Positions 8,803-56,470 of a stretch of 64,000 nucleotides of DNA are shown here, piece after piece (positions within the stretch are counted from its first letter, which is position 1; each line of letters opens with the position of its first letter). The notes under the pieces were generated by a model that was given only the letters and a program-made list of their open reading frames with translations, searched no databases and was not told the DNA's origin. This stretch comes from a virus, in IMG/VR virus record IMGVR_UViG_3300036767_000362; one strand, written 5' to 3'. The position numbers were made by a program, and so were the translations under genes.

Positions 8803-9324
8803 TTAGCGAAGGAACTCTCGCCAGTTTAGATTATATTGTAATGAGTCTATTTTATGGACACCTAATAAGAACAATACGTAACTAGCAACCGAACTTCCAC
8901 GTCCTACACCCCATATAATATTGTTTTCCTTCATAAAATTGACAAGATAATGTAAAAATCTTAATAGGTTTGTAAAACCCATTTCTTTAAATGCTTCTAA
9001 TTCTTCATTTACTCTATTAATGCTATTTTGGTCACCTGGACATATGCTACGAACATATGTTTCTATATCGAAACTCTTGTAACTGTTTGGCATAAACCAT
9101 TCATTTTGTAAAAGTTTATCAAAAGATTTTAAATCAATGTCTAATGATTTATAAAATTTAAGTTGTTGACCTGTACCAGTTAATTCAACGGATTTATTAA
9201 ATTTTTTTGTTTCTTCGTTGTCATCTGCTAATACATTAAACAACAAATCTTCCTTACCTTTATAGATAAGGTCCATTAAGTCATCGGTACCATATTTTGG
9301 TAACCCTAATTTATCAATTTGCAT
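8803..9324 (-). CDS. DNA polymerase III alpha (DnaE)-like fragment, split polymerase subunit
   Basis: RVNEEL..F...GF..LL....LV......I.WGVGRGSSVASYVLFLLGVH.ID motif; only 173 aa. Confidence 0.8.
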   Translation of the reverse strand: MQIDKLGLPKYGTDDLMDLIYKGKEDLLFNVLADDNEETKKFNKSVELTGTGQQLKFYKSLDIDLKSFDKLLQNEWFMPNSYKSFDIETYVRSICPGDQNSINRVNEELEAFKEMGFTNLLRFLHYLVNFMKENNIIWGVGRGSSVASYVLFLLGVHKIDSLQYNLNWREFLR

Positions 9325-14043: not shown

Positions 14044-15810
14044 TTAACCATAATTCCAAGGTTTACGATTAGACATCGGTATATAAGCAACATTACCTTT
14101 ACTACCAAATAGAGACCATTGATTAGTATAATCATTATCTAATCCACTATTAGCATCTGAAGAATAAAAGCTATCTTGAATAGCATTTTCGGTCATAAAA
14201 CTTACAACTTGTTTAGGCGTCCAATCGGGGTGCATTTGGTATACTAAAGCCGCCATTCCTGCCGCCTGAGGACTAGCCATAGATGTTCCTTGCTTTCTCT
14301 CTTGCCAATAATTGTTATTATGGTAGTATGGTCCGCCTGCACTGCCGTCAGAACAACTTATAATCATTTCACCTGCCGTCCAAATATTAACTCCCGGACC
14401 TTGAGAACTAAAAGGACTTTTTCTGTCCCTAGTAGAACTATGAGGATTGTAATTAATTGACCCAACTACAAAAGCCTGACCTGCCTTATTAAAATTCGGA
14501 TTAGGACTGCCTCCTCTATTATAATAATACTTATTTCCAGAGACAGGGCTTCCTCCCCAAGCTGACCAATTGTATTGGTCGGGAAGATAGCCGTTACTAT
14601 CTGCTCCAAGAGTAATGTAATTGTCCCAATCTGCTCCACTAGGAAGATCCCATTTTTGACCGTCATTTCCTGAAGCAATACATAAAACAATACCATCATC
14701 AATCATTTCTTCGACCTCGGCATTGTTAGCCACAGTATTAATACCTGCATAAGGTTCAGAGTTCATTGCGTCAGACCAACCATAAAAACTTAAACCTTTA
14801 TTTCTCATATCACTGTTGCTATTAATAGAATATGAATTTCCACGATAACTTCCACCGGTTATTGGGAAACCCAAAAGGTTAAAGCCAACATCATAACCAT
14901 AAAATTTGACGCCAGAACCCCAACTCATATTAACTACAGTTGGTCTATGTGTACCGGTCCATAGAGCATGATTTGGATCATTTTTATTATTATGCCAACC
15001 TCTCATTATGTCCATACCATCATAACCGCCAATAGAACCAGATCCAAACATCCTCATACTGTAAATTTTAGAATTTTTTGCCCAACCAAAGTTTTTGCCT
15101 GCAATTGTTCCCATAACATGAGATCCATGAGAACCATCGGTTAATGAATAAAAGTCATTAGCTTGAGTTCCAGATATTCCAGATACCGCATACCAATCAT
15201 GCATATCATATCTACTAACTCCATTTGAATCTTCCCATTCAGGATGTCCCATTATAACTCCAGAATCTTGAGCCACAACATCAACACCTGTACCATCTAA
15301 AACATAATCATATGAACCACCAGGATCTGAAGTACTTGATCCATAATTATTAGTTTTAGAACAATGTCTTAATAATCCCCAATTATCTCTTCTATAATTG
15401 CTATTATGGCTTGAACTTTTTTCAAATCCTCCATCATGATATTTTCGTTGTATTATAAACATTGGATCTACCGGTGCTTCAACGTCTTCGATTCTTGGAT
15501 CATTTTTTAATTTTTTTATTTCGTTAGAACTTAAATTATAATGAGTATTTCTTTTATTAGTAGATTTTAACTTAATAACATCAACAGTTCTATCTGGTAT
15601 AATATTTGAATCTACACTTGGATCGGCAGTAGTATCTCTAGTAAGTTCATTATGAAGTACTTCCCAGTTAACACCTTTTTTTACTGTAACAATAACTTCA
15701 AAATTATCATCTGGACTTGATGATCGCATTTTTGCTTTCATCTCTTCTATTTTATCTTCGTACTCTTTACTAGGTTGTTTAGGCGGAGCACCTGGATCGG
15801 GCATTGACAT
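14044..15810 (-). CDS. subtilisin-like S8 serine peptidase
   Basis: Catalytic triad in VVAQDSG, HGSHVMG and GTSMASP; oxyanion-hole Asn in ASGND. Confidence 0.9.
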   Translation of the reverse strand: MSMPDPGAPPKQPSKEYEDKIEEMKAKMRSSSPDDNFEVIVTVKKGVNWEVLHNELTRDTTADPSVDSNIIPDRTVDVIKLKSTNKRNTHYNLSSNEIKKLKNDPRIEDVEAPVDPMFIIQRKYHDGGFEKSSSHNSNYRRDNWGLLRHCSKTNNYGSSTSDPGGSYDYVLDGTGVDVVAQDSGVIMGHPEWEDSNGVSRYDMHDWYAVSGISGTQANDFYSLTDGSHGSHVMGTIAGKNFGWAKNSKIYSMRMFGSGSIGGYDGMDIMRGWHNNKNDPNHALWTGTHRPTVVNMSWGSGVKFYGYDVGFNLLGFPITGGSYRGNSYSINSNSDMRNKGLSFYGWSDAMNSEPYAGINTVANNAEVEEMIDDGIVLCIASGNDGQKWDLPSGADWDNYITLGADSNGYLPDQYNWSAWGGSPVSGNKYYYNRGGSPNPNFNKAGQAFVVGSINYNPHSSTRDRKSPFSSQGPGVNIWTAGEMIISCSDGSAGGPYYHNNNYWQERKQGTSMASPQAAGMAALVYQMHPDWTPKQVVSFMTENAIQDSFYSSDANSGLDNDYTNQWSLFGSKGNVAYIPMSNRKPWNYG

Positions 15811-18393: not shown

Positions 18394-18735
18394 TTACTGT
18401 TTCACCTTTAATGTTCCGCTATCGTTCCATAATTGTCCAACTGCCAATCCTGCATCTGATGTAGGTAAATTTGACAATGTAACTGTTGAAGATGTTTTTA
18501 ATGTAGTAGTTTCTACGGGACCAACAACTTTTCCATTAACTGCATCAATCATAACTGATGAATCATCAGCAAATACAGAACCTTTAAAGTCTGTAATTAA
18601 TGAGCCACCTTCTAATGCAATTATTCTAGTGTATGCGTCAGTAAAATTGTCGTTTACTTTTGTAAACGCCGTTCTTAACGGATCGCCATCACCTTTGTTT
18701 GCACTTGTACCTACATTTATAATTTGTTGTGCCAT
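18394..18735 (-). CDS. small virion protein with gp9/gp10-like N-terminus
   Basis: INVGTSANKGDGDPLRTAFTKVNDNF. Confidence 0.55.
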   Translation of the reverse strand: MAQQIINVGTSANKGDGDPLRTAFTKVNDNFTDAYTRIIALEGGSLITDFKGSVFADDSSVMIDAVNGKVVGPVETTTLKTSSTVTLSNLPTSDAGLAVGQLWNDSGTLKVKQ

Positions 18736-21700
18736 TATACTCTACCTACCACCATTTCTATTACACCAACACTTGGGTTCATATGATCTTCTAATGCTTT
18801 ACCTAATACTGTTCCAACTCTAGGATCAGGACTAGATGAAGCGTGTCCTCTAACACTACTTGTTACTAACATATCACCTTTTCTACACATTCCAGTAACT
18901 TTAACTTTAACTCTACCTTGTAAAGCAATTGGTGTTCCACCTTCTTGTGCTGAATTCATTAAGTATGCTGGTTTGTCTGAAACAACTCCAGCTACTCTTG
19001 TATCTTCAGATAATTGAGTAGTTGTAACTTCTTTATCTCCGCCGAATATAACAACTGTACCTATTTCATAATTGTCATCTGCTGTATAATTTTCCGCCAA
19101 GTCAGCATATAGAGATCTTGTTGCTGTTCCATCAAATATATTTGCGTACATTGTATTATATCTTCTACTGGAATCACCAATATTAAATGTCATATTGGCA
19201 TCACCAGGAACAATACCTTGTGTTGTAACTAATAATGGAACTGATCCATCAGCTACAATTGCCACTCTTCCTTCAGCACTATCATCAGTGTCTGACACGT
19301 ATGCACTACTTTGACCTATAGCTATTCCTGTTGGATTGTTTGCTTTTCCTGTAGATTCAATAAATTTAGTGTATATATGATCCACTGCAAGAGCGCCATC
19401 ACTAGCACCTTGAGTATTACTTGCTGATGCATCTGCACCACCTATATCTAATCTTCTACCAGGAAGTGAAGTAACTGTATTAGCCTGTGTACTTCCTATA
19501 CCAGTAGCAAAATCTATTCCACCAGGAGTTGTTATATTAAGTGTAGATGCGGAACTATCTAATGCAAGATTACCATCTATTTTTAATCCTGCTAAATCCG
19601 TTACACCAGTTGTATCTGTTTTAACTATACTATTAACTTCTCCTGTTTTTGTAACGTTAGTAACTTTGTAAACACCAGCACTTTCTTTTATAAGTGTTTC
19701 ACCGGGATCACTAGCGGCATCTAATTCTGTAGTAAAGTCAGCATCAACTACTGCTCCACCTTGAGAAATTATATCTGAAAATGTAACTGCATTTACGTCA
19801 CCAGTACCTGAATCAGTTCGTCCATATGCTTGGTATTGATCTAATTGAGGTAAATCAGCAAAGTCTATACCAGAAGAAGATAATTCAACCCAACCATTAG
19901 TAACTGTAAAGTCACCTGAATCAAAACTTGCAAGTCCTAAATCTGCTTGACTAATTCCTGAAGCATTTGCTCTTGAAGTTGCGGCATTCATATTCAACTT
20001 ACTTTGAGCTATTGCGGCATCTGATTTAACATCTGCATTAATAATTACATTTGATGCAATATTAAATGTAAGTTCAGTTTGTGTTGCAGTTCTATTTGCA
20101 GTCATTTCTACATCTGAAGCTGTAACAACTGCATTACCCATTTCATTTATTGCAGTATCTATAACTTGAGCAGTAACTCCACCACCAGTATCAATTGTAT
20201 CTGCTGTAGTAAATTGTGTAGGACTAGATGTCCATGTGTAAGTAATTCTTGTGGCATTAACCGCTCCAGGTAATACAAGAACTTCTACATCTACAATTGT
20301 TCCTGTTGCACCAGTTACTGATCCTGTAAAAGTATCACTAACTGCAAAATTTCCACCAACTGCAGGTACAGTATACATTCTGTATTTGCCATTGAATATT
20401 AAAAGTTGTGCTTCAGCTAAATTTCCAATATTAACGTTTCTAATATTTTCTATTTGATCTGTTTCGTATATAATATTATCTACATAACTTTTTGTAGTTG
20501 CATCTTGATCCGAAGACGGATCTGATAAACCTGTTAATTTAAATCCACCAACTGCCATGTGATTTGTAAATGGAATAGAACCGTCTCTAGCAATAGTACC
20601 TGCTCCAATTGGATTTCCTACTAAAGTAGTTGCATGGTCAAAACCTAATCTTCTATTAACATATTCTCTAACAGCTGATTCTGTTGGTACACTATCAGTA
20701 GAATTGTCTACCATTGAACCATCTGTACTAAATTCTGCTACAACAACACCTCTTTTAAATCCTATACCATCTAAATTACTAATTGCAATTGCCGCCGCAA
20801 ATGAAACTGTTCCTGTTGCTTGATCAACTGTGAAATATTTTCCTACTCTAAAGAAACCATCTTGGTCAGTACTAACATAGTAAACTCTACCTTTTAATTT
20901 TTCAACAGTTTCATTAGTTTGAGATGATGCCGTTGTTGCATCACCATAAATTACATTAGGGAAGTTTGTAGTATTAAAACCACCTGTTCCAATATCTAAG
21001 AAATCATGATTTGATGCTCTTGCTGTTGAAACAAATACAGTAATTGAAGCTGGTTCTGTAGCAGACAATCCAACTCTAAATGTAGGAGAACCTCCATTTG
21101 TTGCCACATATCCAGTCATTGCACTGTGAATTCCTGCGCCTATTGGAGTAGGATTAATATTTGATACATCTGTAATTTCTACTGTAGCATATGTTGTTCT
21201 ATCTACGTAATTTGCAACTTTGTGAGTTTTACCATCCCAACCAAATGTCATATCGCCATTGTTTAATCTTGCAATATCTGCCGCTTCTGGAATTGTGTTA
21301 ATTGCAATTACAACGTCACCAATTGTGTGACCCATTGTTGTTCCTGAACCAGCATGAGTATTATTTTGTGCTTCAGTTTCATTAAGAGACATCTTAACAT
21401 AATCGTAAACGTCATCAAAAGCAATTAAGGCAGTATTAGCCGGTAAAGCCACACCAACTGGATTTGATGTTGAATAAGAAATACTTCTGTAAGTTATAGT
21501 ACTTGTTTCATCAAATACTACAGCAGTTGTTGGTTTAGAAGGTGCTGTATTATTAACATCACTAAAGACGAATTGAGAATTTGCTCTAATTGTTACTGTT
21601 TGATCATCTGCAAGAGCGGCTTTTAATCCTGTTGTAGATGTTTCGTTTTTACCACTTGTTCCTAAATTAATTTTGTAAATTGTTGAATCTCTAGTACTTG

Positions 21701-24700
21701 CTGGAGCAACTTCGGCAGATGCTTCCACAGTTGTAACTTCATATCTTGTAACACCTATTACGCCACCGTGATCTATTTCTACTTCTGAATTATTAGTAAC
21801 AACAGTATCTAAATCATAAACATAAATTGATAATGCTCCACTAGGATGAGTTAAATTTACTCCGTCATCGCGAACTAATGCCGCTTGAACCATATCTTTT
21901 GTTAATGTTATAGGATCAATTGCTTCGTTTGGATCACTACCTGCTGAAACAATTCCGTATGTTCCGTGACAACAAGAACCGTTTAATGATCTAATTTTTC
22001 CACCGCTGTTGGCAAAGTATGCCGTTTCGCAAAAATAAGTGAAACAGGATACTAATTCTGTTAATGCACTATTATTAACAACAAAGCCATAACCTAAATC
22101 ATTTACTTGAGTAAATGCGTGTGCTAAAGCTGATCTATTACCTGCTGTTTGTATATCAATACTAAAAGGTGTTGCTTCAGAAAATCCATTACCGTCATTA
22201 GAAGAACTATCAAGAAGTAATTGAGCTGTTCCATTTGGTCCATCATAACTTTTTATTGCATTAATTTGATATCTATTACCTGCAATATAAAAAGGACAAG
22301 GTGTTTGAGGTTTTCTAATTCTTAAACCTGTTCCTGCATCACTTGTTACGTCTAATATAAAAGGACTAACCACGTTAGTTACTTTTGTAGGTAAATTACC
22401 TGCGAATGCATCAATATACATTCCACCGCTAAATGTTTTAGCATTTTTAGATGCAGAATAACAAGCCGCGTCAAATGTATAAGGTGATTTAGTATAAACT
22501 GCTCCTTCAGGATCTAATACTTCAGAAAAGCCTCCATGATTTTGAAATGTTATATTTTTTATAATACTAGAATTGTTTACTAAAAGTACATCTAAATCTT
22601 TATTGTTTTTAGGAGTACTAGCAGAATTATTTGCATCTGACAAATAATGATAACCATAATTTTGTGTTGCAATTGTTAAACCATCAAATGTTGTATCTCT
22701 GTAAAAATACATTCGTACCCAAGGAGATTCTGATACTCTGTCTTTTGGTCTAATAATAACTCTTCTAAATTCATCTCCTTGTAAGGAAACGTTTTCAGGT
22801 AATTTGATTGGATAATCTTCGTAATATACACCTGATTCAACTTTAATTGCTATGTGCTTATCTCTAATTGGTTGAGCAAATACCATTTCTTCACTAATGG
22901 AGAACATTTTAGGTTCTAATAAATCAACTTCAATTGTATCTGCTGATGCACCTGCAGTTACAGAAACCACTCTACCTATTGCTTTAGAAGTTTTACCTCT
23001 AACAATTTTTCCAGCAATTAAATCTGGTTGACTTAATTGATTGGCATCTAATCTTCCTGTGCTACCATTATTAAGTGTAAGACTAATTGTACTACCATCA
23101 ACAAGAGCTGGAGCCGTGCTTAATCCATTAGTAATAATACCTTCTATAATTGTAAATTTTGCTTGAGCAGATGCTAATCCATTTGCATCTACTGTTTGTC
23201 CATTATTAATTGTTTGTCCGTAATTTGTTTGATATAAAGTTCCTGGTGCTGTATTTGTTAAAACATTGTTTGTTATTGTTTTAGCATAACCAATCGCCGC
23301 CAATGTATGAGCTTTTTGTGTAGTGATTGCATATAATCCACTATTACTATTATAAAATCTTTCACCACATTGTACAGATTGATAATTTGCATTTAAACCG
23401 TTTAGTATATCTATAACTAAACCATCAAGCATATAACCTAAATCTCTAATACATAAATTTCTAAAGTTTGTGTGAGTTGGATATTGACTTTCTGTATAAG
23501 CAGTTGCTTCTTGAATTATAAATTGTCTATTAGCTTCAACTAATATTTTTACTGCTGTATAACCACTACTGTTTGTTACACCTTGAGTTAATACTGTAGA
23601 ATTATTTGCTCCACTATTATATGTAAGAGTTTGTACCCAAGGACCTGGTTCAAACGGAGCAGTTTTCATTATTTCTTCTGCTCTCTTACAAGCCGCACCT
23701 ACAGTAGCATAAGCATAACTAGAAGACCTTCCCCATCTGTCTTGAGGTATTCCAGTCATTGAATCATCACCGCTAGTGTTTACATATATGTTACTTTTAG
23801 AATGTTCTGCCGCTTCGTCTACATAAAATTTTGTTGCCGCTTGTAAATCACCATCTCTAACAGCGTCTTGAATTTTAGGTACTACATCTAAACCATTTGT
23901 AGTAATATCAACAATAGTTGCAACTAGTGAAGTTATTTTTGCAGTAGCACCTGCTTCTGTAGTTTTAGTTTTATAAATTTGAGTTGTAACAACTGGACTT
24001 TGATTTGTTGAAAGTGCAACTTGTGGTAAAATATTTGTATTAATAAAATCTCTTAATTTATTATTAACTGCTGTTGCGTATGCAATTTCTCCACTACCTA
24101 ATTGAGATGAAGCACCTTCCCAATAATATTTTGAAGTTCTTATACTTTCTGAATTACCACCATATCTTATATCATGTGCTAACGCATCAATATTAAATTT
24201 TGTATCTCTTTCGCATTTTTCATGACGTGTTGTATTATGAATTCCTGGATTGTTAGCATCAAACCAAGACATTACTTCATCTGCTAAAAATTCTTTATTT
24301 GCTTCTATTAAAGTTGCCGCGTTTGGATATAATGCTCCTAGACCTGCCATTGCTCCTGGGTGGTCGTGCAAATTAAGAGCACCATCCATACTGTCACCTT
24401 GTCTACGGACAACAGATTTTCTAGGAAGTGCTTCTGAACTTAACCAATTTCCATATAAAGCAGTATCTAATTCAGCATCAGTTATAGTTTGAGTTCCTGT
24501 ACCTCCACTAGCTACAATTTTAACTCTTGTACCATCATTATCATTTGTTGCTTCTGCTTGGCTGGCGTGTAATGAAAGAGTACTTCCATCTACATATCTA
24601 ATATAATAAATTGTTGCTGATGTTAAATTTACTGCATCATTTCCTGTTGAATTATAAATGAAAGCTAATCCATTAGATCCTGCGTCAAAACCATGACTAG

Positions 24701-25298
24701 CTATTGTAAGGTCACCACTATTGTAAGCAGTAATTGTTAATGTATATTCTGTAGTATCTGCGGGTTCTGATCTAACTCTTAATTGGCCTGATGCTCCACT
24801 AGGGCCTCCTGAAACTTTTAAATATCTTTGGTCAGCATATTGTTTTGTAATTACAAGATCATCTATAGTAATATTTGAACCATGTGTTGAATTATAATCT
24901 GTTACTGCTGTATCTGTTACTTTTACATTACCTATTGCGAAATTATTTCCATTTAAAGGTCCACCTAATGATGGTTGAGTGTCTGAGGCAACTGTTGCAC
25001 CTGTACTGTTTAAAATAATTTTAGATGCATCACTGGCTGTATCAATAGCCATTCCTATACCACCAGTAAGCTGTCTCATTTCGATAGCATTACCGGCATC
25101 GTTTGTTATTGGAATGTTTTTGGAACCTCCAAGTGTATCAGGAGTATCACTTAATGATGCAAATGTTACTTGACCGCCTTGCCCGAATACTGCATATAGT
25201 TCTGTAAAGTTTTCATTCGATTTACGAAATGCGTCTCTTATCGCATCACCCGTGCCATCGTTACCTTCTATACCTATATTAATAATCTGTTTAGCCAT
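18735..25298 (-). CDS. giant tail/baseplate protein (2187 aa) with two phycobiliprotein-like repeats and a C-terminal intramolecular-chaperone-like domain
   Basis: N-terminal INIG..GNDGTGDAIRDAF; C-x-R-D repeats at about aa 362 and 616; C-terminal ADLAENY...GVVS..PAYLMN...IALQGRV..KGDMLV. Confidence 0.7.
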   Translation of the reverse strand: MAKQIINIGIEGNDGTGDAIRDAFRKSNENFTELYAVFGQGGQVTFASLSDTPDTLGGSKNIPITNDAGNAIEMRQLTGGIGMAIDTASDASKIILNSTGATVASDTQPSLGGPLNGNNFAIGNVKVTDTAVTDYNSTHGSNITIDDLVITKQYADQRYLKVSGGPSGASGQLRVRSEPADTTEYTLTITAYNSGDLTIASHGFDAGSNGLAFIYNSTGNDAVNLTSATIYYIRYVDGSTLSLHASQAEATNDNDGTRVKIVASGGTGTQTITDAELDTALYGNWLSSEALPRKSVVRRQGDSMDGALNLHDHPGAMAGLGALYPNAATLIEANKEFLADEVMSWFDANNPGIHNTTRHEKCERDTKFNIDALAHDIRYGGNSESIRTSKYYWEGASSQLGSGEIAYATAVNNKLRDFINTNILPQVALSTNQSPVVTTQIYKTKTTEAGATAKITSLVATIVDITTNGLDVVPKIQDAVRDGDLQAATKFYVDEAAEHSKSNIYVNTSGDDSMTGIPQDRWGRSSSYAYATVGAACKRAEEIMKTAPFEPGPWVQTLTYNSGANNSTVLTQGVTNSSGYTAVKILVEANRQFIIQEATAYTESQYPTHTNFRNLCIRDLGYMLDGLVIDILNGLNANYQSVQCGERFYNSNSGLYAITTQKAHTLAAIGYAKTITNNVLTNTAPGTLYQTNYGQTINNGQTVDANGLASAQAKFTIIEGIITNGLSTAPALVDGSTISLTLNNGSTGRLDANQLSQPDLIAGKIVRGKTSKAIGRVVSVTAGASADTIEVDLLEPKMFSISEEMVFAQPIRDKHIAIKVESGVYYEDYPIKLPENVSLQGDEFRRVIIRPKDRVSESPWVRMYFYRDTTFDGLTIATQNYGYHYLSDANNSASTPKNNKDLDVLLVNNSSIIKNITFQNHGGFSEVLDPEGAVYTKSPYTFDAACYSASKNAKTFSGGMYIDAFAGNLPTKVTNVVSPFILDVTSDAGTGLRIRKPQTPCPFYIAGNRYQINAIKSYDGPNGTAQLLLDSSSNDGNGFSEATPFSIDIQTAGNRSALAHAFTQVNDLGYGFVVNNSALTELVSCFTYFCETAYFANSGGKIRSLNGSCCHGTYGIVSAGSDPNEAIDPITLTKDMVQAALVRDDGVNLTHPSGALSIYVYDLDTVVTNNSEVEIDHGGVIGVTRYEVTTVEASAEVAPASTRDSTIYKINLGTSGKNETSTTGLKAALADDQTVTIRANSQFVFSDVNNTAPSKPTTAVVFDETSTITYRSISYSTSNPVGVALPANTALIAFDDVYDYVKMSLNETEAQNNTHAGSGTTMGHTIGDVVIAINTIPEAADIARLNNGDMTFGWDGKTHKVANYVDRTTYATVEITDVSNINPTPIGAGIHSAMTGYVATNGGSPTFRVGLSATEPASITVFVSTARASNHDFLDIGTGGFNTTNFPNVIYGDATTASSQTNETVEKLKGRVYYVSTDQDGFFRVGKYFTVDQATGTVSFAAAIAISNLDGIGFKRGVVVAEFSTDGSMVDNSTDSVPTESAVREYVNRRLGFDHATTLVGNPIGAGTIARDGSIPFTNHMAVGGFKLTGLSDPSSDQDATTKSYVDNIIYETDQIENIRNVNIGNLAEAQLLIFNGKYRMYTVPAVGGNFAVSDTFTGSVTGATGTIVDVEVLVLPGAVNATRITYTWTSSPTQFTTADTIDTGGGVTAQVIDTAINEMGNAVVTASDVEMTANRTATQTELTFNIASNVIINADVKSDAAIAQSKLNMNAATSRANASGISQADLGLASFDSGDFTVTNGWVELSSSGIDFADLPQLDQYQAYGRTDSGTGDVNAVTFSDIISQGGAVVDADFTTELDAASDPGETLIKESAGVYKVTNVTKTGEVNSIVKTDTTGVTDLAGLKIDGNLALDSSASTLNITTPGGIDFATGIGSTQANTVTSLPGRRLDIGGADASASNTQGASDGALAVDHIYTKFIESTGKANNPTGIAIGQSSAYVSDTDDSAEGRVAIVADGSVPLLVTTQGIVPGDANMTFNIGDSSRRYNTMYANIFDGTATRSLYADLAENYTADDNYEIGTVVIFGGDKEVTTTQLSEDTRVAGVVSDKPAYLMNSAQEGGTPIALQGRVKVKVTGMCRKGDMLVTSSVRGHASSSPDPRVGTVLGKALEDHMNPSVGVIEMVVGRV

Positions 25299-25641
25299 TT
25301 ACCTTATCCATATCAAAAGTTATAGATTCTCCACAACCACATGACGATTTAACTTTTGGACTTGTAATATCAAAATATGAACCCCATACTTCTGATACAA
25401 AATTTAATTCTGATCCAAGTAAAAACATTATACTTGTTGAATCTACTAATAATTTTCCACCAGTAAATTCAATTAATTCGTCACGTTTGTCAATTTCATT
25501 TTTTTCTGCAAAACCCCAGTCATAGGAAAAACCAGCACATCCTCCGCCTTTAATTCCTAGTTTTACTGCATATTTGTTGTTTTGTGAACAAAGATCTTTA
25601 ATCTTCTGCTCTGCAGAATCAGTAAGTGTTAATATCGCCAT
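25291..25641 (-). CDS. A-type Fe-S cluster carrier (IscA/HesB family)
   Basis: GGGCAGFSY and SSCGCGES. Confidence 0.92.
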   Translation of the reverse strand: MAILTLTDSAEQKIKDLCSQNNKYAVKLGIKGGGCAGFSYDWGFAEKNEIDKRDELIEFTGGKLLVDSTSIMFLLGSELNFVSEVWGSYFDITSPKVKSSCGCGESITFDMDKVNG

Positions 25642-39261: not shown

Positions 39262-39966
39262 TTAGCTTATTTTAGGGAATAATATGTCTGTACAAAATTT
39301 TTCAACATCTTGTTCTTTTAGACCCAATGACTTCATTACTCTTGGTGTATGGGGGTTCATAGTTTGATTGGAACAATAATAGTTTTGTGCTTTAATTGTG
39401 TCATCTTTTTTTGCAGTATCTGAATATTGTCCTATACTATCAAAATAAACTTTAAGATTGTTAATTGCTAAATCAACTATTGCAGTTGCTTCTTCATCTG
39501 TTCTAACATTACCAGCGGCAATCATACTACTTGAAAATATGTTTTGTGCCCATTCAGGTAATTCTCTTTTTTTGCTAGGTATATAATCTGCTACTGCATC
39601 TTTATACCAGTCTACTAAAGGATGTTGTTCTCCACCTGAAGATGCAGAAAAATCATGAAAGGCCCCTGTCATTTTATTCTTACCTGCTATAACATCAAAG
39701 CCATATATAGGTCCGTTGTTATCAAGATTAGGAAAGACGCATACGTGCATCATCCAAAGAGCTTTTGTATCTCTAGCATCTACTACATCTATATGGCAAC
39801 GTCTACAATGATTAGTATGCCACACCCTGTTCATCCAACCATTTTCAGGTTGATTGAAATGGTCCATGCCAGGTTCAGTTATTTCTGTACCTCTAGTATT
39901 AAACTCTTTAAGTATTTGATTTTGACACTCTATAAGTTTATTCCAAATAAAAGATTCATTTTTCAT
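39262..39966 (-). CDS. pcyX: ferredoxin-dependent bilin reductase, PcyX-like
   Basis: RRCHIDVVDAR....LWMMHVCVFP...PIYGFDVIAG..K.TGAFHDFS, RELPEWA..IFS, Q..NPHTPRVM. Confidence 0.85.
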   Translation of the reverse strand: MKNESFIWNKLIECQNQILKEFNTRGTEITEPGMDHFNQPENGWMNRVWHTNHCRRCHIDVVDARDTKALWMMHVCVFPNLDNNGPIYGFDVIAGKNKMTGAFHDFSASSGGEQHPLVDWYKDAVADYIPSKKRELPEWAQNIFSSSMIAAGNVRTDEEATAIVDLAINNLKVYFDSIGQYSDTAKKDDTIKAQNYYCSNQTMNPHTPRVMKSLGLKEQDVEKFCTDILFPKIS

Positions 39967-40165
39967 TTTCTAATTCTTTTATTCGGTCTTCCAGGACAGA
40001 TATTGTTGTATGAATATGTCCAGTGTCCGTTGGTTGAAGTAATGTTTTAAGATGTTCTACTTCTTTTTTAAGAATATTAACCCTTATCATATTTCCACTA
40101 AAGTCTTTTTTAGTTGGATTAGAAATTTGTGTTACTGCTCCTCTTATTATAGATAGTCTAGTCAT
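39956..40165 (-). CDS. hypothetical protein between hemO and pcyX
   Basis: 69-aa coupled ORF containing DTGHIHTTISVL. Confidence 0.55.
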   Translation of the reverse strand: MTRLSIIRGAVTQISNPTKKDFSGNMIRVNILKKEVEHLKTLLQPTDTGHIHTTISVLEDRIKELENEK

Positions 40166-40761
40166 TAATCTTTTAAAGGATCATCTTTAGTGTTTCTATT
40201 ATCTTCGTCATAAATTTGTGTACTTAATTCTTTGAATAGTTTAGTAGCAAAATCGAAAGCAATTATTGCCTCATCTTTCATATCATCATTTAAATTTTTT
40301 CTTACATCAGCTTTCATTTCGTCAATTGGTTTAGGAAAATCATACAAACGTCCTTTACCAGGTATACGTTTTCTAATCATTTGACCACCACTTAAATCTG
40401 CCATATGGCGAACATAAATGTGGGCCATTATTTTTTGTTTGTCATCTTTTATTGATTTAATATGATCTATAAATTCTTTTACAACAGGTGCTACATAAGG
40501 TTTTTTGAAGTCTGGATCGTCGACATTTTCGGGCCATAACTCTTTAAAGTCTTCCCATATAGATGGAGCTCTTCTAAGGTCTTGATTCATTACTCCATGA
40601 AGCATACCAAAGGCTTCTAATACATCATAACAAGGATGTTGATTGTATAGATAGGTAGCATATAATTCTTTTGGTATTTTGCCACTCATAAGCAGATTGG
40701 CAAATTTATGCCTTTCTGCCTTCTTATGATGTTCCCAAGTTAATTCTTTTAATTTGCTCAT
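40165..40761 (-). CDS. hemO: heme oxygenase (biliverdin-producing)
   Basis: LKELTWEHHKKAE (proximal His) and AHIYVRHMADLSGGQMI. Confidence 0.9.
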   Translation of the reverse strand: MSKLKELTWEHHKKAERHKFANLLMSGKIPKELYATYLYNQHPCYDVLEAFGMLHGVMNQDLRRAPSIWEDFKELWPENVDDPDFKKPYVAPVVKEFIDHIKSIKDDKQKIMAHIYVRHMADLSGGQMIRKRIPGKGRLYDFPKPIDEMKADVRKNLNDDMKDEAIIAFDFATKLFKELSTQIYDEDNRNTKDDPLKD

Positions 40762-40821
40762 TCTTTTTCTCCTTTTTATGATGTTCCCAAGTTAATTCTT
40801 TTAATTTGCTCATTCTTTTTC
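40724..40821. repeat. 46-bp direct duplication spanning the clpS stop and hemO start
   Basis: ttatgatgttcccaagttaattcttttaatttgctcattctttttc at 40724-40769 and 40776-40821. Confidence 0.9.
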
Positions 40822-41115
40822 AATCTTTATTTGAAGTGGATATCCCAAACTTCTACTTTCGTTTGTTGCCTCCATACCTTTTTGTTCTGCTATTTCGTAT
40901 GTATAAATTCCAACAATTATAGAACCCTCTTTATGAATTCTCAAAGTAAGATCACGAGCCGTTTCGGGTGTGTGTTTAAATATTTTGATTAATATATCAA
41001 TTACAAATTCCATAGGAGTTACATTATCATTCAAGAATATAACTTTGTAATTTTCAGGTTCTTTAACAACCTGTTTTATTTTTTCATCTATTTTTACTTC
41101 TATGTCAGTACTCAT
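40810..41115 (-). CDS. clpS: ATP-dependent Clp protease adaptor ClpS
   Basis: YKVIFLNDNVTPMEFVI...IHKEG...YTYEIAE.K....GYPL. Confidence 0.92.
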   Translation of the reverse strand: MSTDIEVKIDEKIKQVVKEPENYKVIFLNDNVTPMEFVIDILIKIFKHTPETARDLTLRIHKEGSIIVGIYTYEIAEQKGMEATNESRSLGYPLQIKIEKE

Positions 41116-41367: not shown

Positions 41368-41817
41368 TTATTTAATGTCTATTTTTTTAGCCTTTTTATT
41401 CTCTGGAACTATTCTTTCCAAAGAAACTCTTAAAAGACCATCTTTAAGTTCAGCACCTTTTACTTCTACGTCATCCGCAATTGTAAAAGATTTAGAAAAA
41501 TATCTTTGAGATATTCCTCTATGCACAACTCCATCTTCTGAATTGCTTGTTCTAGCTTCTTTGATAGATTTGATTGTAAGCATATTATCTTTATACTCTA
41601 TATCAATATCTTTCTTACTGAAGCCAGCAAGAGCAACTTCAACATCGTGGGTGTTTTCACCTGTTTTCACAATATTGTAAGGTGGGTAGTTGATACTGCC
41701 GGAACCATTAAAGATTTGATCACCGTCCATCATTCTTTCGAAATGATCGAACACGTTGTCAAATCCAATAGTTACGGGTCTTAGTTGATTAAAAATTGAT
41801 AGGGCTTTATTTGTCAT
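41368..41817 (-). CDS. small heat-shock protein Hsp20 (IbpA-like)
   Basis: IGFD..F, YPPYNI, ALAGF, HRGIS.R.F, A.L.DGLL. Confidence 0.95.
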   Translation of the reverse strand: MTNKALSIFNQLRPVTIGFDNVFDHFERMMDGDQIFNGSGSINYPPYNIVKTGENTHDVEVALAGFSKKDIDIEYKDNMLTIKSIKEARTSNSEDGVVHRGISQRYFSKSFTIADDVEVKGAELKDGLLRVSLERIVPENKKAKKIDIK

Positions 41818-54841: not shown

Positions 54842-56470
54842 TTAAGAAAGAACCGAAACGTGGAAAAGTAAGCCTGCATTGTCCCCAGCAGTAGTATTTT
54901 TAACATAAAATACCAAAGTTTCCTTTGTTGTGTCGCCATTTTCGTCTGATAATGCAGTTGTGAATTCTAAATTAGTTTGATAAGATGCATCACCATCGTA
55001 ATTATATTCATCTGCTATTTTAGTAGTACCTTGTGCTATATTAAGCATTACATTTAATTCACCATGTCTTGTTGCGTTAACTGTATTGCTTAGATATGTA
55101 TAATCAATTTTATATTTTTTATTTGAATCTGCTGGTAATCTAAATAATCTTTGTGTAGTTGGTACATAACCAACTGAAGCATCAAACGTATATGAAAAAG
55201 TACCTGCAAACTTTCCTTCTATCTCTGGAATATATGCAACATTAGATAAATTTGAAGTATCAGATGATAAAACTTTTGTTCTAGTAAAGTGATCTGCGTG
55301 AGATGAATTATTTTTAGATTCAAATTTAATTACTCCAGATATTGGTCCATTTTCTGTACCACCATCATTTCCAACTAATGCATAAGAATTATTTGCACTA
55401 ACATTTCCATAACCTTCTTTAACCCAAAAACCATTTTTATCTATGTTAGCAAATCTTGAATTAGTAATAGTATTGTTAATAGGTCCTGTAGCCATTGCTA
55501 CATTTCCTAAATTTGTGCCTCTACCCCATACTACACCATATCCTAAATTTTCAAATATGCTGTTTGTAAAAGTATTATTAACAATATCATTATCTGAAAT
55601 TATTCCATTGCTCCAACCATCTACATAAAATTTGTTAAAATTATTATTTGAACAAGTAACAACAGAACTTAAACTTGCTAATTTAATTCCTGCTTCAGCA
55701 CCATTTTGAATTGCTGTTCCTGTAGTCCACGGTCCTTTTAATTTAACATCTTCAAAAAAACTATTAGAAACATTATCTAATTGCATTCCAAAATATGCGT
55801 GACTAGTTGTATGTTCAATTGTTAAACCTTTAATTGAAAGGTGTCTTGGTTGATTAAGAGTAGTTGTTTGTGCAAAGTGAGTTGAACTGTCGCCCGGAAC
55901 TCTAATTCCGTTTACTGCAACAATACTTGTAAAACTTCCATCTTGTTTTATAACAGTTTTGTCACTACCATCTCCTTCGATATTTGTAAAAGGTGGTAAT
56001 TTTAATGTTCCGTTAATAACATATACTCCAGCATGAAGATGAAGTGTAACTCTGCTTGTTTCATTTCCAACAGTTGCCGGGTTACAAAATAATTGATCTA
56101 TTGCTCTTTGTAAAGCAACTGTTACGTCTGTACCATCTCCAGTAATACCAAATGACCTAGCACTAACTAAATCATCTAGTCTAGATTGTAAATCTCTTTT
56201 AGTATGATCTAAGGCAGTTATACCTGTTTGTACAGTAGACCCATTTAGGTAAATGTATTGATTGCTTAATTGAAATAAATTGTCGTGTTCTGTTAAAACT
56301 TTAGTATTTCCAACATTAGGTGCACCTTCAGCCACAGAGCCATTACCCAAGTATAATTCTTGAGAATCTACTGCCCAGCCAAATTCACCACCTGCAAGTT
56401 GGGGTAAACCAGAACCTGCGGTCTTTTTACCTCGTCTAATCTGTATTCTTGATATCGATACAATAGCCAT
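54842..56470 (-). CDS. virion protein with beta-helix (pectin-lyase-like) domain
   Basis: ISRIQ.RRG...LPQLA.GE.GWA.D...LY.GNG; FG..GDG.D...LQRAID; Asn-rich helical repeats. Confidence 0.65.
   Translation of the reverse strand: MAIVSISRIQIRRGKKTAGSGLPQLAGGEFGWAVDSQELYLGNGSVAEGAPNVGNTKVLTEHDNLFQLSNQYIYLNGSTVQTGITALDHTKRDLQSRLDDLVSARSFGITGDGTDVTVALQRAIDQLFCNPATVGNETSRVTLHLHAGVYVINGTLKLPPFTNIEGDGSDKTVIKQDGSFTSIVAVNGIRVPGDSSTHFAQTTTLNQPRHLSIKGLTIEHTTSHAYFGMQLDNVSNSFFEDVKLKGPWTTGTAIQNGAEAGIKLASLSSVVTCSNNNFNKFYVDGWSNGIISDNDIVNNTFTNSIFENLGYGVVWGRGTNLGNVAMATGPINNTITNSRFANIDKNGFWVKEGYGNVSANNSYALVGNDGGTENGPISGVIKFESKNNSSHADHFTRTKVLSSDTSNLSNVAYIPEIEGKFAGTFSYTFDASVGYVPTTQRLFRLPADSNKKYKIDYTYLSNTVNATRHGELNVMLNIAQGTTKIADEYNYDGDASYQTNLEFTTALSDENGDTTKETLVFYVKNTTAGDNAGLLFHVSVLS

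Follow-up and report, generated by a model that had tools for sequence, protein, structure and literature searches.

What does a phage do with a bilin that it makes itself? The question is raised by a stretch of 64,000 nucleotides from the IMG/VR virus record IMGVR_UViG_3300036767_000362 (the window, meaning this whole stretch), which encodes a heme oxygenase, a PcyX-type bilin reductase and a giant baseplate/tail-fibre protein bearing two helical repeats with a C-x-R-D motif. That phages can encode bilin synthesis was recognised some twenty years ago. In phages of non-phototrophs, its purpose has been called enigmatic, and a 2024 paper on tetrapyrrole genes of phages goes no further than speculating about a BBAG globin as a possible partner (PMC11480375). 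An earlier note, made from the letters of this DNA alone, proposed that the repeats are phycobiliprotein-like and that the phage may attach its own bilin to them. The analysis reported here shows that both repeats fall within the lineage of bilin-binding globins, which comprises phycobiliproteins and BBAGs. The repeat is a concrete phage-encoded candidate for a bilin acceptor with an intact attachment site, and the question of purpose becomes testable. Literature searches turned up no earlier account of a phycobiliprotein-like domain in the virion proteins of phages. The source of the window is an uncultured marine T4-like myovirus with a GC content of 32.8%, and no cultured phage gives a megablast match to it.

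Two globin repeats in a giant baseplate protein

The gene of the gp10-like baseplate/tail-fibre protein (18735..25298 (-)) encodes 2187 residues and was assigned from its open reading frame (ORF) translation, the Pfam family T4_gp9_10_N and tail-fibre PHROGs. Repeat 1 (residues 316–498; 23805..24353 (-)) matches the repeat profile at 230.6 bits, and repeat 2 (residues 577–736; 23091..23570 (-)), which is slightly degenerate, matches it at 108.8 bits. These limits are profile envelopes; the repeats begin at residues 326 and 582, respectively. Both are helical, span about 155 residues and share 25% identity over 165 residues, with a BLASTP E of 6e-10 in a single comparison. Because of this pairwise value, they are taken to be real duplicates, with chance excluded. 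The translation contains both peptides that the earlier note had quoted from the two repeats.

The two motifs also lie where that note had placed them. In repeat 1, the K-C-E-R-D site (residues 361–365; 24204..24218 (-)) includes Cys362, encoded by codon 24213-24215, and in repeat 2, the L-C-I-R-D site (residues 615–619; 23442..23456 (-)) includes Cys616, encoded by codon 23451-23453. Among all six-frame ORFs of at least 60 residues in the window, C-x-R-D is confined to these two sites. All site residues are present in repeat 1, and repeat 2 retains C616, R618, D619, D625, D630 and N590.

The protein begins with a T4 gp9/gp10-type baseplate attachment domain (residues 3–100; 24999..25292 (-); PF07880, E 4.2e-7, 30.6 bits against a cut-off of 25). 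A central tail-fibre-like region follows at residues 1051–1551 (20646..22148 (-); phrog_9851 tail fiber protein, E 6e-49), and a tail-fibre-type domain forms the C-terminus (residues 2023–2179; 18762..19232 (-); phrog_22593 and phrog_19602, tail fiber). A gp9-like connector (phrog_677) is encoded among the neighbouring genes. Owing to the gp9/gp10 N-terminus, the tail-fibre PHROGs and this nearby connector, the 2187-residue protein is a baseplate-anchored fibre protein. Both globin repeats are placed between the gp10-type baseplate anchor and the distal tail-fibre-type domains.

Relationship of the repeat to phycobiliproteins

Single-sequence phmmer searches with both repeats found no match in PDB or Pfam, and neither repeat matched PF00502 even at E 10. 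A profile of 133 repeat copies (A1) behaved differently. Searched against PDB at E ≤ 10, it matched 35 sequences, 34 of which are phycobiliproteins, the best being C-phycocyanin alpha (E 4e-4). The alignment spans helix B to helix E and sets the K-C-x-R-D of the repeat, including residues 361–365 of repeat 1, on Lys83-Cys84-x-Arg86-Asp87, the covalent bilin site. In the reverse direction, PF00502 (Phycobilisome) matches 26 of the 133 single repeats with a best E of 2.3e-5, and every other family matches two or fewer. Hence, the C-x-R-D resemblance that had been read by eye is borne out by profiles linking the two families in both directions. At the genome level, PF00502 matches reach 12–13 bits against a curated cut-off of 22.2. 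Since these scores lie under the Pfam cut-off, the repeat is not a PF00502 member in the strict sense; within the bilin-binding globins, it instead makes up a divergent branch that is new.

Structure prediction agrees with this placement. AlphaFold2 with an alignment gave a seven-helix model of repeat 1 (pLDDT 91.2, pTM 0.85); a single-sequence prediction of residues 300–800 (pLDDT 36) was unusable. In an exhaustive structural search (VIA), ranks 1–8 were all phycobiliproteins or the ApcE bilin domain, with Z values of 12.8–14.5 and root mean square deviations of 1.9–3.2 over 114–144 residues. The next neighbours were photocobilin (Z 11.7), globin-coupled sensors (11.6), RsbR (about 11) and haem globins (7–8). 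The top rows of a Foldseek search were likewise almost all phycobiliproteins (prob 1.00). The ESM Atlas returned only unnamed Chloroflexota globins, RsbR-type globins and B12-photoglobins. The fold anticipated in the earlier note is thus recovered: it is globin-like, with phycobiliproteins closest.

The structural alignments begin at chain residues 20–39, and the model shows just a short helix ahead of helix B. On this basis, the model suggests that the repeat is a globin core from which the N-terminal X-Y helical hairpin is apparently missing. In phycobiliproteins, this hairpin mediates alpha/beta pairing.

Could the resemblance be convergent or accidental, a helical repeat that happens to hold C-x-R-D? 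The empty single-sequence searches would fit such a view, as would the modest profile E (4e-4) with scores below the Pfam cut-off, and helical models often yield a high best Z. However, three independent lines agree, namely the PDB profile search, the Pfam matches to single repeats and the two structure searches. Phycobiliproteins come first in both structure searches, with 114–144 aligned residues in the exhaustive one, and the motif occupies the same helix position. Chance or convergence is therefore regarded as highly improbable.

Conservation and coupled decay of the site

Column conservation was derived from about 1,550 repeat copies with a mean identity of about 25%. Despite this divergence, Cys362 is kept in 97% of copies, Arg364 in 97% and Asp365 in 99%, so that the cysteine singled out in the earlier note is indeed conserved among homologous repeats. 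Asp376 (99%) and Tyr392 (98%) are equally constant, Lys361 is found in 56% of copies, and a G-G-N turn (Gly380, Gly381 and Asn382) is conserved across the copies. In phycobiliproteins as in BBAG-1/-3, CXRD is recognised as the motif at which bilins are covalently attached (PMC10151467).

The copies that have lost the cysteine are informative. When 1,501 copies with Cys were compared with 50 copies without it, Arg364 fell from 98% to 58% (p 1e-19), Asp365 from 100% to 75% (p 2e-19), Tyr392 from 99% to 74% (p 2e-13), Lys361 from 57% to 28% (p 7e-5) and Asp371 from 80% to 53% (p 3e-5), with p values computed on copies that are not phylogenetically independent. In the copies without Cys, no change is seen at the scaffold columns Tyr357, Gly380, Gly381 and Asn382, and Asp376 is still at 96%. 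Because Cys, Arg, Asp and Tyr decay jointly once the Cys is lost while scaffold residues are kept, they appear to behave as one functional site under strong joint selection. Such coupled decay is the pattern expected of a ligand-binding site and is difficult to explain if the role of these residues is purely structural.

These results bear on an alternative in which a phycobiliprotein- or BBAG-type globin was captured and now serves, without a chromophore, as a rigid helical building block of the fibre, its Cys, Arg, Asp and Tyr being kept for folding or for contacts with neighbouring domains or chains. The residues under the strongest selection are precisely the chromophore ligands of phycobiliproteins, and they decay together after Cys loss whereas the scaffold does not. 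Moreover, one Cys per copy is typical, which rules out an intradomain disulfide as the reason for its retention. What favours such a module is taken up below with the repeat arrays and the distribution of the bilin genes.

A different ligand may also be considered. A haem-binding globin was rejected: no alignment column has more than 10% His across the copies, so that the conserved proximal histidine is not there and haem binding is ruled out. A broader version holds that the pocket binds something other than phycoerythrobilin (PEB), such as non-covalent biliverdin, a host tetrapyrrole or another small molecule, or that the Cys is redox-reactive or cross-linking. BBAG-2 binds biliverdin, and BBAGs take several bilins (PMC10151467); cyanophages carrying the repeat would meet phycocyanobilin, PEB and phycourobilin in their hosts; and for the conserved Asp371, Asp376 and Tyr392, the sequence alignment offers no obvious equivalent in phycobiliproteins. 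Against this version, besides the missing histidine, stand the specific tie of CXRD to covalent bilin attachment (PMC10151467) and the PcyX of the window, which makes a bilin fitting such sites. Overall, another ligand or another use of the Cys is considered quite unlikely.

Repeat arrays in giant proteins of marine phages

An exhaustive HMMER search with repeat 1 as query identified 840 representative proteins at E ≤ 1e-3. Most of them are 2,000–6,400 residues long, with many matched stretches each. Copies were counted in the best 150 of the 840 proteins, where 1,927 domain matches were found, up to 41 per protein and mostly spaced 140–180 residues apart. Arrays of this length and regularity look like a generic fibre repeat and also fit a purely mechanical role, which speaks for the chromophore-free module described above.

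Among 50,697 cultured phage records, 147 carry the repeat; 146 of these are named cyanophages, and the one remaining record, without annotation, is of a marine single-cell virus. Publicly, the proteins with the repeat are annotated as ‘tail protein’, ‘structural protein’, ‘hypothetical’, ‘virion structural’, ‘tail fiber-like’ or ‘gp7 baseplate wedge’, labels that nowhere point to a globin domain. The structural matches of the repeat model in BFVD are likewise giant proteins of T4-like cyanophages. Collectively, the repeat is a module that giant virion proteins use in tandem arrays, both in marine T4-like cyanophages and in jumbo phages lacking psbA. Hundreds of giant ‘hypothetical’ or ‘tail fibre’ proteins in abundant marine phages are filled with this domain, which the finding allows to be named.

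Long repeat-bearing contigs were found with a degenerate DNA pattern. Four IMG/VR contigs of an approximately 190-kb genome type (G050, G051, G036 and G054) have a giant ORF of 2,778–5,934 residues with 18–29 repeats, after which comes an ORF of 287–307 residues with a single repeat.

Bilin genes, lyases and host

The earlier note had recognised a heme oxygenase and a PcyX-type reductase in this genome, and both assignments hold. The reductase gene pcyX (39262..39966 (-)) encodes a ferredoxin-dependent bilin reductase (FDBR) of the phycoerythrobilin synthase type (Pfam Fe_bilin_red); it matches PcyX (PDB 5OWG) at E 8.6e-81, against about 1e-11 for PcyA, and is a true PcyX. The hemO gene (40165..40761 (-)) matches Pfam Heme_oxygenase at E 6.4e-17. 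Together, the pair would produce PEB from heme. The two genes lie about 15 kb from the giant-protein gene and are not adjacent to it. Their closest cultured-phage relatives are those of Pelagibacter phage Mosig, with 53% identity for PcyX and 46% for HemO. In Mosig (MT647606, 15599-20684), hemO-pcyX stands between tail-fibre and neck genes, after ferrochelatase and four 2-oxoglutarate-Fe(II) oxygenases.

The host had been described as non-photosynthetic. Neither psbA nor psbD was found in 18 related PcyX contigs, in 24 repeat contigs or in the complete relative G041, and the ribonucleotide reductase of the window is closest to those of pelagimyophages (71–72%, versus 66% for cyanophages). Because psbA/psbD are missing from the relatives, and the ribonucleotide reductase and PcyX are nearest to those of SAR11 phages, a non-cyanobacterial, non-photosynthetic host is likely, which falls short of proof. 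By CheckV completeness values, phages of this lineage would have genomes of about 350 kb. The best reference genome is G041, a jumbo phage of 363,943 bp (CheckV 100%) without psbA/psbD, whose hemO and pcyX are 44% and 53% identical to those of the window and whose three giant ORFs, at about 53, 68 and 207 kb, contain 12 repeats in total.

Genes for the ClpS adaptor and Hsp20 (40810-41115 and 41368-41817, both (-)) lie directly upstream of hemO; with DnaJ and peptide deformylase at the window start (674-1549 and 166-687, both (-)), they form a proteostasis set. An ORF of 116 residues (25291-25641 (-)) encodes an A-type Fe-S cluster carrier (PF01521, E 1e-15; phrog_17776) and overlaps the start of the giant-protein gene by 8 nt, an odd placement within the baseplate cluster. 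As pure speculation, this carrier might serve the ferredoxin on which PcyX depends.

Bilin attachment and its alternatives

The following scheme is proposed. During infection, the phage heme oxygenase and PcyX would convert host heme to PEB, which would sit in the globin pocket with a thioether link to Cys362 and probably to Cys616 too. Because no lyase was seen, attachment would most likely be autocatalytic, like that of BBAG-1/-3, and the baseplate fibres of the finished particle would bear a few dozen bilins. More speculatively, the chromophore might render the fibre light-responsive and gate adsorption, rather than act as a sunscreen. That a bilin is bound to the repeats, probably covalently and without a dedicated lyase, is a proposition for and against which we find the case evenly balanced. 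If true, virus particles would join antennae and cellular BBAGs as places where the bilin-binding globin lineage is at work, and lyase-independent, tandemly repeatable bilin-binding modules could serve as fluorescent tags.

The distribution of the repeat offers some support. It is present in 16 of 29 long PcyX contigs and in all five of those of at least 99 kb. G041 combines hemO and pcyX with its 12 repeats, and G050 has an adjacent heme oxygenase–FDBR pair and 29 repeats. The hosts of the cyanophage carriers, i.e., 146 of the 147 cultured records, make bilins, and pelagiphage HTVC008M has no repeat and no bilin-gene match. As far as these data go, access to bilin looks necessary for carrying the repeat.

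Several observations nevertheless weigh against attachment. Mosig, with hemO and pcyX, has no repeat at E ≤ 1, and a profile search of the complete P-SSM2 genome found none there either; P-SSM2 carries the bilin reductases pebS/pcyA (PMC2984593). The repeat is missing from 13 of the 29 long PcyX contigs, some of which cover about 25 kb on either side of pcyX. Most repeat-bearing cyanophages have no bilin genes of their own, and an FDBR lies on the fragment in just 2 of 24 long repeat-bearing contigs, almost all viral contigs being fragments of 10–40% of a genome. Phylogeny further confounds the distribution, all carriers being marine T4-like phages. Classical phycobiliproteins usually require lyases. 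Pfam scans of the 43 largest ORFs of the window found no S- or T-type (CpeS/CpeT) lyase, as the earlier note had remarked, and no CpeT was found in 18 related PcyX contigs or in G041; CpeS was absent from five records including G041, and E/F-type lyases, which are generic HEAT repeats, were not specifically searched. The cyanophage-like G051 does encode a CpeT-type bilin lyase. Repeat 2 has Leu615 in place of Lys and Phe648 in place of the conserved Tyr. Finally, attachment is something that we infer throughout, and the chromophore is a predicted one.

The expected co-occurrence of repeat and bilin genes accordingly stands in part: it holds for the 16 PcyX contigs and G041 and fails for Mosig, P-SSM2 and most cyanophages. 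The link is frequent but not obligatory. Since Mosig and P-SSM2 carry bilin genes but lack the repeat, phage bilin genes clearly occur without it and have at least one other use.

The same separation of bilin genes and repeat, together with the missing lyase, also argues for the chromophore-free module, as does a literature search that found no report of pigmented cyanophage particles. The missing colour, however, is weak evidence. Tens to a few hundred bilins on each particle are estimated to yield an absorbance of roughly 0.01 at 1e12 particles/ml. T4 gp10 is present as six trimers per particle. With a T4-like stoichiometry and two sites per chain, about 36 bilins per particle are estimated, which at an extinction coefficient near 1e5 per M per cm would give an absorbance below 0.01 at 1e12 particles/ml; because of this low value, colourless preparations are not evidence against attachment. 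With the coupled decay of the site residues set against it, the chromophore-free module is the chief rival, which we nonetheless hold to be doubtful.

A lead to light-dependent adsorption

Light-dependent adsorption of S-PM2 to WH7803 was reportedly first described by Jia et al. in 2010, judging from the title of that report and its citations. P-HM1 and P-HM2 do not adsorb in the dark, whereas P-SSM2 and the podovirus P-SSP7 do, and the mechanism of light-dependent cyanophage adsorption is not known (PMC6628666). In profile searches of the complete genomes, five repeats were found in P-HM2, five in P-HM1, ten in S-PM2 and none in P-SSM2 or P-SSP7. These counts fit a light-responsive fibre, as a lead only, and make the repeat a molecular lead for light-dependent cyanophage adsorption. 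Two points tell against the correlation: it comprises about four independent phages, whose hosts differ, and P-SSM2, too, adsorbed better in the light (PMC6628666).

In its fullest form, the idea would be that virions carry covalent bilins on globin domains of baseplate or tail fibre and thereby possess their own photoreceptor for light-dependent adsorption. We judge this to be unlikely. If true, it would explain hemO and pcyX in phages of heterotrophic marine bacteria as well as the light-dependent adsorption of P-HM1/P-HM2 and S-PM2, and the particle would be the first chromophore-bearing, light-sensing virion.

Other genes in the window

Within the baseplate/fibre cluster, a subtilase of 588 residues (14044-15810 (-); Peptidase_S8, E 2e-28) adjoins the gp9-like connector gene. 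Away from this cluster, a protein of 542 residues (54842-56470 (-)) combines an Mtd_N tropism-determinant N-terminus with a pectate-lyase-like beta-helix and is a second candidate for a receptor-binding or depolymerase fibre. An ORF of 173 residues (8803-9324 (-)) has a bacterial DNA polymerase III alpha NTPase domain (PF07733, E 5e-15) as its sole match and may be a fragment or a split gene.

Comparison with known systems

Phycobiliproteins (PF00502) share with the phage repeat a globin-like fold, homology over helices B–E and K-C-x-R-D at the bilin Cys84 site. Yet, they are free subunits of 160–180 residues in the photosynthetic antenna, whereas the repeats lie within a virion protein of 2187 residues, and the phage repeat shows extra conservation of Asp371, Asp376, G-G-N and Tyr392.

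BBAGs are phycobiliprotein paralogues in genomes of heterotrophic bacteria that have heme oxygenase and FDBR (Rockwell et al. 2023, PMC10151467). Those of types BBAG-1/-3 have CXRD and attach bilins in E. coli without a lyase (PMC10151467). As in the phage of the window, the globin gene is co-encoded with heme oxygenase and FDBR in a likely non-phototroph setting. However, BBAGs are single-domain cellular proteins adjacent to these enzymes, whereas the phage domain is repeated in a virion protein about 15 kb away; this comparison draws on the published description of BBAGs.

The giant proteins of S-PM2, P-HM1/2, S-RSM4 and S-CAM1 contain the same repeat as the window protein. The repeat-bearing cyanophages infect bilin-producing hosts and mostly lack bilin genes of their own, whereas the lineage of the window has hemO and pcyX and no psbA/psbD. 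T4 gp10 shares the N-terminal gp9/gp10-type domain and the position in the baseplate cluster with the window protein, but it is about 600 residues long and has no globin domains, in contrast to the 2187 residues and fibre-like distal parts found here.

Photoglobins/photocobilins and the globin-coupled sensors (RsbR, HemAT and DosC) are the next-best structural neighbours of the repeat (Z 11–11.7). They have no CXRD, their ligands are haem or B12 plus bilin, and their fusion partners are signalling domains rather than fibres; photoglobins carry CXQD (PMC10151467). These neighbours show that this branch of the globins commonly serves sensing.

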